This document shows, piece after piece, positions 24,401 through 27,400 of a stretch of DNA of 64,000 nt. The DNA is from Escherichia coli (GTDB lineage: Bacteria; Pseudomonadota; Gammaproteobacteria; Enterobacterales; Enterobacteriaceae): NCBI RefSeq assembly GCF_045037415.1, contig NZ_CP173438.1, one strand, 5' to 3'. The stretch's first letter is position 1. Every line of letters begins with the position of its first letter. Position numbers: made by a program.

Positions 24401-27400
24401 GAAGAGATCTACCATCCACGGTAAGCCTACCGAAACCAGAAATCCCGCTACGCCGCAGAGAACGAATCGCCAGGACTGGCAGGAGATCACTTCATTGTGG
24501 CGGGTGGTCATGGTGTTGATCAGCGCGCAGTACGGTACGTTGATGGCTGTATAACCGACTGAAAGGAGCAGGTAAGTACCGAACGCCCAGGCGATTTTTA
24601 CTCCCATGCTGGCATCTGGCACGGTGAATGTCAGGATGCCGATAATGCCGATGGGAATGGCAATCCATAACTGCCACGGACGAAAGCGCCCCCAGCGACT
24701 TTGCGTCCGGTCGGCAATGACGCCCATCACCGGGTCGGAGATGGCATCAAACACGCGTAGCGCAATAAACAGCGTGCCAACCAGCGCCGGAGTTAAGCCA
24801 AAAACGTCGGTGTAGAAAAAGGTGAGAAAGTTCATGATCAGGCAAGTTATTACGGTGCCGCCTGCGTCACCCAGGCCGTAGCCTATTTTTTCCCGTACAG
24901 ATAACGCATCGTCAATTTTACCTTTAGCGATATCAGCGGTGGTAATCGGTGTAGAGGTCATAGATATTCCTCGTGAATAGGGAGCAATTTTTAGTTTTAT
25001 TGCAATGACCTGATTAATTCTGCCGTGAACGGGAATATCAACAAGGCGAGAAAAGAGTAAAAAAAGGTGACGATTCCGACCTGAATTTAAAAGTGTGAAA
25101 TGGATCAGGTGAAATTAATGTTTTTGATTAATAATCAAAAGGTAATGTGTTTAATCATTAATGAATAAGCGGGAAATTACATATCAATGCTCGAATTATC
25201 CATGACGTTACCGATTAAAGTGCAAAATGGTGGATTATTTATTTCCCGTGGCGTAGGGAGGCATCCTGCAAGGCGGCTGGAGTCATGGGAAATTATCTTC
25301 GTCGAAAAAGGTCGATTAACGATTCAGGAAGATGAACGGATATTTCTGGTCGATGCGGGAGAGAGTTTATTACTCTGGCCGAACCGACAGCATGTTGGGG
25401 TGGAGGATTTTCCCGCCGATCTCAAATTTTACTGGCTGCATTTTGAGGTTAAAGCGCCGGACAACGATCCGCGCTGGCTCACTCATCTTAGCGTGCCGCA
25501 ACAAACTAAGGTTGCCGATCCGCAGGTGCTGGTGGCCTTGTTTCGCCAGTTCTTAAGCGAACAGGAAAAGCATCAACGCACTCCGGCGCTGGAGTTTATT
25601 GTGCTGCTGATTTTGCAGCAGCTCACCCGTGACGCGCGTCTTGATGAACAGGCCGATGGTGCAGGCACCACCCTTGCCTGGAAAGCGCAGAAACTGATTC
25701 GCACGCAATATCACCGCCCGCTTTCCACGGCGCTTTTAGCCCGCGAGCTGTACTGCAATGCCGATTATCTTGGGCGCGTCTATCGGCGGGTGTTTCATCT
25801 GACGTTAACAGAAGCAATCCACCGCCAGCGGGTGCGCGAAGCCGAAAAGCTGTTAATTAGCGAAGCGCGATCGCTCACGGAAGTGGCGGCGTTGTGCGGG
25901 TTTAATGACGTCGGCTATTTCCGGCAGATTTTTCGCAAACACACCGGCTTAACGCCAGCAGCGTGGAAGCGGCGTTACAGCAAGGAACATATCAATTCGT
26001 AGTGCCGGGGCGATGAAGCCCCGGCGTGAGGGATTACTGCCCGTAATAGGCATTGGCCCCATGCTTACGCAGGTAGTGCTTATCCAGCAGTTCGTTTTGC
26101 ATCGCAGGGAGCTGTGGCGCAAGCTGGCGCGAGAACAGACCCATATAGGCGCACTCTTCCAGTACCACGGCGTTATGCACCGCATCGGCGGCATTTTTTC
26201 CCCAGGCGAACGGGCCGTGAGAATGCACCAGTACCGCCGGGATTTGTGCCGGGTTCAACCCACGCTCTTCGAAGGTTTTAATGATCACTTCGCCGGTCTG
26301 GTATTCATACTCACCGTTGATCTCTTCTGCGGTCATCAGGCGCGTGCAGGGGATGGCTCCGTAAAAATAATCGGCGTGAGTAGTGCCCCAGGCGGGGAGA
26401 TCAAGTCCGGCCTGCGACCAGATGGTGGCGTGGCGCGAGTGGGTATGCACTATGCCGCCAATCTCCGCAAAGCGACGGTAAAGCGCCAGATGCGTTGGCG
26501 TGTCGGAAGAGGGCTTTTTGCTGCCTTCCACCACCTTGCCGCTGGCTATCTCAACCACCACCATATCGTCGGCGGTCATTACCTCATACTCAACGCCGGA
26601 AGGCTTAATCACCATCCATTGCCGCGTTTCGTCTATCGCGCTGACATTGCCCCAGGTGAACGTCACCAGATGATGAACGGGAAGCGCCAGGTTTGCCGCC
26701 AGCACGTCAGCTTTCAGTTGCTCTAACATATAAATCCGGCCTCCTGCATACGCGCTTCAATCCAGCGCCGCGCCTGAATAATCTCCAGCACCGGCTCTTT
26801 GGCTTTTTCGGTCCACATCTCAATCAGGAAAGAACCGCGATAGTTCAGCTCATGCAGCGTTTTGAAGATGCCAACAAAATCGACACAGCCTTCGCCAAAC
26901 GGCACATCGCGGAACTGTCCGGGGCTATGTTCGGTAACGGGTTGAGTGTCTTTCAGGTGGATGGCGGCGATACGGTCGATGCCCAGTTTCAGTTCGGCGG
27001 GAACATCATTGCCCCAGGCGCTGAGATTGCCGACGTCCGGGTAAACGGTGAACCACGGTGACGCAAGCATTTCGTCCCACTTTTTCCATTTGCTGATAGA
27101 GTTCATAAACGCGGTGTCCATAATCTCCACCGCCAGCATGACTTGTGATGCCGCTGCCTGTTCAACCGCCCACGCCAGCCCTTCAGCAAACCGTTGCTGG
27201 GTGCCTTCGTCATGATCTTCGTAATAGACGTCGTAACCTGCCAGTTGAATAGTACGAATGCCGAGATCGCGTGCCAGGCGAATCGCTTTACTCATAATCT
27301 CCCGCGCCCGCTGGCGCACGGCGTCGTCCCGGCTACCAAAAGGAAAACGACGATGTGCGGACAGGCACATTGACGGAATAGCAACACCCGTTTCGAGCAT

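Follow-up and report, generated by a model that had tools for sequence, protein, structure and literature searches.

The intergenic gap at 24962-25186 of a 64,000-nucleotide window of the Escherichia coli chromosome (contig NZ_CP173438.1 of assembly GCF_045037415.1; all positions refer to this window) separates a leftward operon, encoding a GPH-family sugar transporter and a GH127 glycoside hydrolase, from a divergent gene for an AraC-family regulator. When the gap is compared with its counterparts in other species, it appears to be a compact divergent control region built like that of araC-araBAD, a reading to which a probability of roughly 0.6 may be attached. The initial annotation had already described the gap as the divergent control region of the GPH/GH127 operon and its AraC-family gene, and the gene content and layout agree with that description. 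It had also put forward two related motifs in opposite orientation, together with a third element, as candidate AraC-type or CRP sites. The inverted repeats are not a conserved operator as judged from the alignment; 40-100 bp to the left of them there is a stronger candidate for that role.

According to the proposed mechanism, the operon would be read leftward from a -35 element TTGTTG (25044-25039) and a -10 element CAGAAT (25022-25017) separated by a 16-bp spacer, with a start near 25008-25010. The regulator would bind 25039-25085, at about -36 to -79, directly upstream of the -35 element and overlapping it. For catabolite control, CRP would occupy TGTGA-N6-TCAGG at about -92 to -94, upstream of the operator, and this site is probably shared with the regulator promoter on the other side, where it would lie near -41 of a predicted start at about 25142-25143. 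Among the blocks needed for induction, the model counts AGTAAAAAAAG along with GACGATTCCGAC, CAACAAGG and TGTGA. Motif 2 (TTAATCATTAATGA) and the second GTGAAAT copy of the third element would be sequences of the E. coli lineage with no conserved role.

Conserved blocks and predicted promoters

With one genome scanned per species, 80 loci were recovered in the Enterobacteriaceae, Erwiniaceae and Hafniaceae, 77 of which had the same layout and a gap that could be delimited; with the gap of the window itself, 78 gaps were available. These were aligned with MAFFT and also compared without gaps after anchoring on the regulator ATG, and conservation was computed with position-based sequence weights. 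Both comparisons pick out identical blocks. The gap ranges from 215 to 383 bp in length across species, with all of the variation falling within the predicted 5' leader of the transporter (Table 1), and there are no insertions or deletions (indels) from 25022 to 25094 in any of the 78 species. The strongest conservation is found in this indel-free module, outside the motifs named by the initial annotation, where four blocks are near-invariant (Table 1) and the spacers score 0.37-0.54. In many other species the variable leader contains an insertion that forms a GC-rich hairpin (for example CCCGC...GCGGG or CCGGCTTGAGCCGG), which aligns to 24976-25000 and is followed by a T-run on the plus strand. 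This hairpin has the orientation of a terminator for plus-strand transcription and lies in what would be the transporter 5' leader; E. coli is without it.

On the operon side, the spacer between the predicted -35 and -10 hexamers measures exactly 16 nt in all 78 species, and the distance from the A of TCACA in the CRP-like site to the first base of the -10 element is 72 nt, again in every species. A simple sigma-70 matrix placed a -10 element at 25022 among its top three candidates in 40/78 species, which makes it the commonest position on the minus strand. TTGTTG-16-CAGAAT may accordingly be viewed as a weak sigma-70 promoter of the activator-dependent type for the transporter/GH127 operon. 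Since such a promoter would be weak, activators would be needed. The positions given above for the start and for the CRP centre derive from the 72-nt spacing, which is the same as at araBAD, and are predictions by that analogy.

The CRP-like site is supported by conservation and position. None of the 78 species is without its TGTGA (25094-98), and in 74 of them the distance from it to the regulator ATG is 93 +/- 1 nt. Both TGTGA and the neighboring GATC (25103-06) have a weighted conservation of 1.00, and the four bases between them score 0.26-0.45. Relative to TGTGA-N6-TCACA the core has two mismatches, with a perfect left half and a right half (TCAGG) that matches at 3/5 positions; the TGTGA-type site of the araBAD region and the site in the xylA-xylF gap have the same number. 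TGTGA...GATC is probably a CRP site. As regards CRP, the earlier proposal is supported for TGTGA...GATC, which is conserved at a fixed position, and not for the second GTGAAAT copy and the remainder of the element, where the weighted conservation is 0.33. Elsewhere in the window, the gap upstream of mtlA (mtlA-yibI, 11084-11260) contains three perfect and one single-mismatch TGTGA-N6-TCACA within 180 bp. This cluster looks like the promoter region of the mannitol operon, with its several CRP sites, and was taken as a positive control for CRP sites.

Between the CRP-like site and the predicted operon promoter lies the module at 25039-25085, which is conserved together with the regulator, adjoins the regulator gene and keeps this layout in about 78 species. 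These features suggest that it is the operator of the adjacent AraC-family regulator. The predicted -35 element overlaps its promoter-proximal end. Residues in both helix-turn-helix regions show no change among 27 homologues of the regulator, as would suit an operator that is itself invariant. Within the module, GACGATTCCGAC is exact in 42/82 loci, every time 117-119 nt before the regulator ATG, and is present at its position with at most three mismatches in 78/78 species. The operator may consist of a pair of half-sites spaced by two helical turns. Of the repeats inside the module, the best-scoring one (AAnAAG at 25040-45 and 25061-66) has an offset of exactly 21 bp and was kept only as a suggestion. 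No other good copy of GACGATTCCGAC was found in the 64-kb window, and no araO2-like distal half-site was found when GACGATTCCGAC with at most three mismatches was sought within +/-900 bp at all loci. The extra matches that recur in that search, each with three mismatches, lie inside the transporter coding sequence and were rejected as araO2-like half-sites. A second ACCTGA (25008-13) was likewise set aside as a repeat of 25079-84, being conserved only in Escherichia, Citrobacter and Salmonella.

Turning to the regulator gene, the candidate -10 element AATAAT holds both key bases (A at position 2 and T at position 6) and has no -35 element. Its first base is 28.5 nt past the centre of the CRP-like site, compared with about 29.5 nt expected with CRP at -41.5, which would place the CRP centre at approximately -40.5 to -41.5 relative to the predicted regulator promoter. 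On the simplest reading, the conserved core AATAATCA of TGATTAATAATCA in motif 1 might, very tentatively, be the -10 region of the regulator gene and not a palindromic operator; if so, this would account for the conservation of the asymmetric core without the rest of motif 1. No other step of the model is as weak as this one. The distance of TGTGA and the module from the regulator ATG is nearly fixed despite much unconstrained intervening sequence. The spacing from CRP to the -10 element can explain part of this fixed distance and leaves the fixed length of the leader unexplained.

Several observations weigh against this arrangement. The proposed operon hexamers are weak, matching at 3/6 (-35) and 4/6 (-10) positions, and the built-in promoter and terminator scan found nothing in the gap, including no sigma-70 site. 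Other matrix candidates are recurrent as well, namely -10 elements at 25089 (39/78) and at 25061 (TATACT, 22/78) on the minus strand and at 25089 or 25123 on the plus strand. In the right half of the CRP-like site, TC is kept in 77/78 species and the other bases are variable, and the window as a whole contains 34 instances of TGTGA-N6-TCACA with at most two mismatches versus 26.4 +/- 5.1 expected, which is not above chance. For the candidate operator, the score of the 21-bp repeat is reached by 23.6% of column shuffles when all offsets are allowed and by 1% if the offset of 21 is fixed beforehand, and the two proposed half-sites look little alike. On the regulator side, the eleven conserved bases around AATAATCA exceed what a -10 hexamer needs. 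Finally, a literature search found no transcription start, binding or expression data for the locus.

The inverted repeats and competing readings

The gap is 225 bp long. Its GC content of 32% is well below the 50.6% of the whole window, and its right-hand part (25110-25186) falls to 22%. All three elements quoted by the initial annotation are present in the gap. Together, motifs 1 and 2 can be written as an inverted repeat with arms at 25121-39 and 25150-68 (15/19 complementary) or as a 23-nt direct repeat at 25116-38 and 25143-65 (18/23, spacing 27). Their chance occurrence was gauged with dinucleotide-preserving shuffles of the whole gap (500) and of its AT-rich part, 25105-25186 (2000). 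A perfect 9-bp palindrome was reached by 2 of the whole-gap and 13 of the AT-rich-part shuffles, a 15/19 inverted repeat by 11 and 16, and an 18/23 direct repeat by 1 and 0, respectively; the palindromes and repeats therefore exceed shuffle expectation.

Across species, the two motifs fare differently from the module. TGATTAATAATCA has a weighted identity of 0.63 over the 78 gaps. Of its two arms, 63/78 species retain the asymmetric right-hand core, AATAATCA, 57 +/- 1 nt ahead of the regulator ATG, and no more than 12 have the whole 6-1-6 palindrome; the left arm is freely variable (e.g., TCGT, TCAT, TTAT). Eight species of the Buttiauxella/Cedecea group that are without AATAATCA have CTACACT instead, about 19 nt further downstream. 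In all, 15 species are without AATAATCA, including Buttiauxella, Cedecea and Hafnia, and these retain the regulator. For motif 2, TTAATCATTAATGA has a weighted identity of 0.32 and a majority fraction of 0.40, which is the background level, and its palindrome TCATTAATGA is confined, within the 78 gaps, to that of E. coli, being altered in E. whittamii and Citrobacter amalonaticus. TCATTAATGA is identical in four divergent E. coli lineages, but this is hardly informative, as E. coli strains share at least 97.9% identity across the gap as a whole. The initial annotation had named lack of conservation in orthologous gaps as one result that would refute its proposal, and over the 78 gaps compared conservation is lacking for TTAATCATTAATGA and for the second GTGAAAT copy.

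Among the alternatives to the araBAD-like arrangement, the one that survives best is that the palindromes at 25122-25140 and 25150-25168 are binding sites of the AraC-family regulator, serving either for activation or for autoregulation of its own gene, and even this is unlikely. The repeats are statistically unusual in E. coli. They are located 20-65 bp upstream of the regulator gene, reminiscent of AraC autoregulation via araO1 (PMC11983282), and the roughly 11 bp formed by AATAATCA and its flanks, fixed in position where the core is kept, are more than a -10 hexamer would need. However, the second repeat is conserved at background level and is absent even from E. whittamii, the intact palindrome is confined to the few species noted above, and the species without AATAATCA keep not only the regulator but also its invariant DNA-reading residues and the module at 25039-25085. 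In addition, a direct-repeat spacing of 27 bp is about 2.6 helical turns, so that the two copies would lie on different faces of the DNA. An autoregulatory role for the region of AATAATCA is possible; for motif 2 and for the palindromic symmetry the reading is contradicted.

A more doubtful alternative is that the module at 25039-25085 is mainly the sequence of promoters placed differently from those described above and is not an operator. The options would be a leftward TATACT (TTTACT in E. coli) at 25061-25056 and a rightward ATGACG-16-AAAAAT at 25067-25094 that CRP would occlude. The matrix scan lends some weight to both, with recurrences at 25061 on the minus strand in 22/78 species and at 25089 on the plus strand in 28/78, and AGTATAAAAAG resembles a near-consensus -10 element on either strand in most species. 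Yet promoters at these positions leave unexplained why the 12-mer GACGATTCCGAC (in the spacer) and CAACAAGG and ATTCTGC (in the transcribed leader) are invariant. If TATACT were the -10 element, the CRP centre would fall near -52.5, off the usual helical phase, and the -35 element would be TCAGGT; in E. coli itself the hexamer is weakened to TTTACT. The araBAD-like assignment, by comparison, gives every conserved block a standard element.

It is less probable again that a nucleoid-associated protein such as H-NS, IHF or Fis binds or nucleates on the AT-rich tract at 25110-25168 and so silences or bends the control region of the island. Such a role would be in keeping with the local GC content of 22% against 50.6% for the window and with the accessory nature of the locus, which is carried by 2323/5426 complete E. 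coli genomes. Many orthologues read TCGTTAATAATCA or TCGTGAATAATCA, which resemble the reported high-affinity H-NS motif TCGATAAATT; in the same manner, AATCAAAAGGTAA at 25133-25145 is one mismatch from the IHF consensus, WATCAANNNNTTR. Both comparisons serve as leads only. The H-NS motif is resembled in part, conservation does not extend to the TTR of the IHF-like match, and what is conserved is a short core at a fixed position and not a general AT-rich tract.

Least probable of all, and highly so, is a recent origin in E. coli of an additional layer. In this view the pair TGATTAATAATCA and TCATTAATGA, found together only in E. coli, would have evolved recently as an operator to which a further protein binds, such as the silencer H-NS or a second regulator. 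The two also form the 23-nt direct repeat, 27 bp apart, that was reached in 0/2000 local shuffles. If true, the operator would overlie the promoter and leader of the regulator gene and provide a lineage-specific layer of control in E. coli. Alternatively, the invariant GATC inside the CRP-like site could make control sensitive to Dam methylation.

A leader RNA or riboswitch was dropped from consideration since the gap has no Rfam match at E <= 1 and both of its strands fold ordinarily (z-scores of -0.73 and +0.13). On the transcribed strand the invariant blocks are rich in pyrimidines and show no possible covariation, and an RNA element in the gap is unlikely. The only small open reading frame in the gap, of 22 codons at 25100-25168, has its start codon within the CRP-like site, in the variable spacer, and was judged from the alignment not to be conserved.

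Relation to known sugar control regions

At PBAD and PRha, the half-sites for AraC and RhaS overlap the -35 element and CRP is bound upstream (PMC11983282). The araC-araBAD region offers the closest comparison for the arrangement favored here. In both, a regulator with a cupin and a double helix-turn-helix is encoded divergently from a sugar operon, and the 72 nt found here between TCACA and the predicted -10 element can be read directly in the K-12 region, where the -10 element is TACTGT. Both also have a TGTGA-type site with one good half that points toward the operon promoter. The two predicted starts are separated by about 135 bp. The conserved module occupies the interval that corresponds to araI1-araI2 and touches the predicted -35 element (PMC11983282). 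The differences are as follows. Along its full length the regulator shares only 23% identity with E. coli AraC, and it fails the NCBIfam AraC equivalog model, with 60.9 bits against a cut-off of 208. The operon consists of a transporter and a glycosidase, not of pentose catabolic enzymes. Besides having no detected counterpart of araO2, the DNA is without the AraC half-site consensus (of the TAGC-N7-TCCATA type). A match of 25068-25084 to araI2 (12/17) was rejected: it is in the opposite orientation, and some half-site reaches 12/17 in 546/2000 shuffles. On these counts, of protein and DNA, the region is outside the AraC regulon.

The rhaSR-rhaBAD and xylA-xylF regions are similar in that the site of an AraC-family protein overlaps the -35 element and CRP co-activates from upstream or from between the divergent promoters (PMC11983282). 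The two RhaS half-sites are inverted and 16 bp apart, however, and XylR differs in having a sensor of the periplasmic-binding-protein type, whereas the sensor of the present regulator is a cupin. No clear repeat of either kind is seen here. The divergent xylF-xylA gap, which is regulated by XylR and CRP, happens to be contained in the same window (46415-46780). It includes TGTGAATTATCTCAAT at 46668-46683, with two mismatches to the CRP core, a sequence taken here as the functional xyl CRP site. Among loci that encode closely related GH127 enzymes, those of HypBA1 from Bifidobacterium longum and of 4QJY from Geobacillus stearothermophilus belong to Gram-positive hosts and have other regulators.

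The three-gene unit and its distribution

The window is chromosomal and, in the regions compared, 100% identical to strains of the sequence type 131 (ST131) kind such as SK1144. The two genes of the operon and the divergent regulator gene (GH127 <- transporter / -> regulator) form a three-gene accessory unit flanked by aldB and the yiaK-sgbE operon. Table 1 gives the coordinates of its genes and of the features of the gap.

Table 1. Genes of the unit and features of the intergenic gap, in order along the window (conservation values are weighted)
Feature	Position	Strand	Remarks
GH127 glycoside hydrolase gene	21577..23550	-	Distal gene of the operon; the three Pfam GH127 domains all match, E 4.6e-112
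GPH-family (MFS_2) sugar:cation symporter gene	23561..24961	-	First gene of the operon; Pfam MFS_2, E 1.6e-73
Transporter ribosome-binding site GAGGAA	24967..24972	-	5 nt before ATG; CTCCTC conserved in the 78-gap alignment
Variable part of predicted transporter 5' leader	24976..25007	-	Indels concentrate here; identity to window 0.36
Predicted operon -10, CAGAAT	25017..25022	-	CAGAAT or CAAAAT in 74/78 species
Block ATTCTGC	25017-23		Conservation 0.87
Predicted operon -35, TTGTTG	25039..25044	-	TTGTTG in 68/78, TTG start in 78/78; within CAACAAGG
Block CAACAAGG	25039-46		Conservation 0.96
Candidate operator of the AraC-family regulator	25039..25085	.	CAACAAGG, AGTAtAAAAAG and GACGATTCCGAC blocks
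Block AGTAtAAAAAG	25056-66		Conservation 0.98
Block GACGATTCCGAC	25069-80		Conservation 0.94
CRP-like site (probable)	25091..25112	.	Core TGTGA-AATGGA-TCAGG at 25094-25109, centre 25101.5; from conservation and position
Third element, TGTGAAATGGATCAGGTGAAATT	25094..25116	.	Read from sequence
Motif 1, TTTTGATTA-A-TAATCAAAA	25122..25140	.	Perfect 9-1-9 palindrome; core TGATTAATAATCA at 25125-25137, 6-1-6
Candidate regulator -10, AATAAT	25130..25135	+	Inside motif 1, in conserved core; 5/6 match to TATAAT
Motif 2, TTAATCATTAATGA	25151..25164	.	Contains 10-bp palindrome TCATTAATGA; no conserved counterpart
Probable regulator ribosome-binding region, AGCGGGAA	25168..25175	+	Conserved in main clade; ends 11 nt before ATG at 25187
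AraC-family regulator gene	25187..26002	+	271 amino acids; Pfam HTH_18, HTH_AraC, AraC_binding

The GH127 product is a probable beta-L-arabinofuranosidase. Among solved structures it is nearest to the Geobacillus GH127 beta-L-arabinofuranosidase 4QJY (E 5e-234), with HypBA1 (3WKW, E 6.6e-152) in second place. The ATG at 23550, 10 nt after the transporter stop codon, is the start given by the NCBI Prokaryotic Genome Annotation Pipeline (PGAP) in a strain that is 100% identical in the regions compared. In SK1144, the GH127 gene, with a product identical in sequence to that of the window, is flagged as frameshifted by PGAP; the corresponding part of the window is 21577-21600. The protein of the window and SK1144 has 657 amino acids against 659 for the intact REL606 protein, to which it is 98% identical over 651 residues. 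Because the difference from REL606 is confined to the last ~6 residues, any frameshift would concern the extreme C-terminus.

The transporter scores 333.7 bits against the NCBIfam model TIGR00792 (gph), where the cut-off is 231. In the regulator, an N-terminal AraC-type cupin is joined to a C-terminal double helix-turn-helix. Its start at 25187 is supported by the N-terminus MLELS, which is kept in homologues. From these gene products, the unit probably takes up and cleaves beta-L-arabinofuranosides from plant glycans.

Within E. coli, the unit is present in 43% of the complete genomes (2323/5426), as a single chromosomal copy in every case, and its carriers include ST131, O157:H7 and the B strain REL606. 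BL21 is assumed to carry it as well, by way of the B lineage that it shares with REL606. Outside E. coli, many enterobacteria associated with plants or the gut have the unit too. At its left end (21400-21577) the border of the island varies by lineage: in the ST131-type sequence aldB abuts the GH127 gene, and REL606 keeps yiaT and yiaU there. In the bloodstream isolate 21AR0275, a copy of the insertion sequence IS1 lies ~66 nt into the coding sequence of the regulator, at about 25253 in the window, and disrupts it. Being inside the coding sequence and outside the gap, it was ruled out as a promoter-activating insertion. In strain ETEC4071, just the right-hand 55% of the gap has a match, and the transporter side appears to be deleted. 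Two further genes in the vicinity are one for a Fic-family protein between yiaY and aldB (18459-19754) and a DUF4862 gene between yiaL and yiaM, inside the yiaK-S operon (32595-33515); neither is known to be part of the K-12 arrangement.

In the library that was searched, no paper on the locus or on the regulation of this enterobacterial GH127 locus was found. If the araBAD-like arrangement is correct, the region would be a case of routine sugar regulation, catabolite-controlled and activated by an AraC-family protein, and it would open no larger question. Its most eye-catching repeats differ from its conserved elements. The unit itself is widespread yet uncharacterised, and a map of the conserved bases of its control region is now available.

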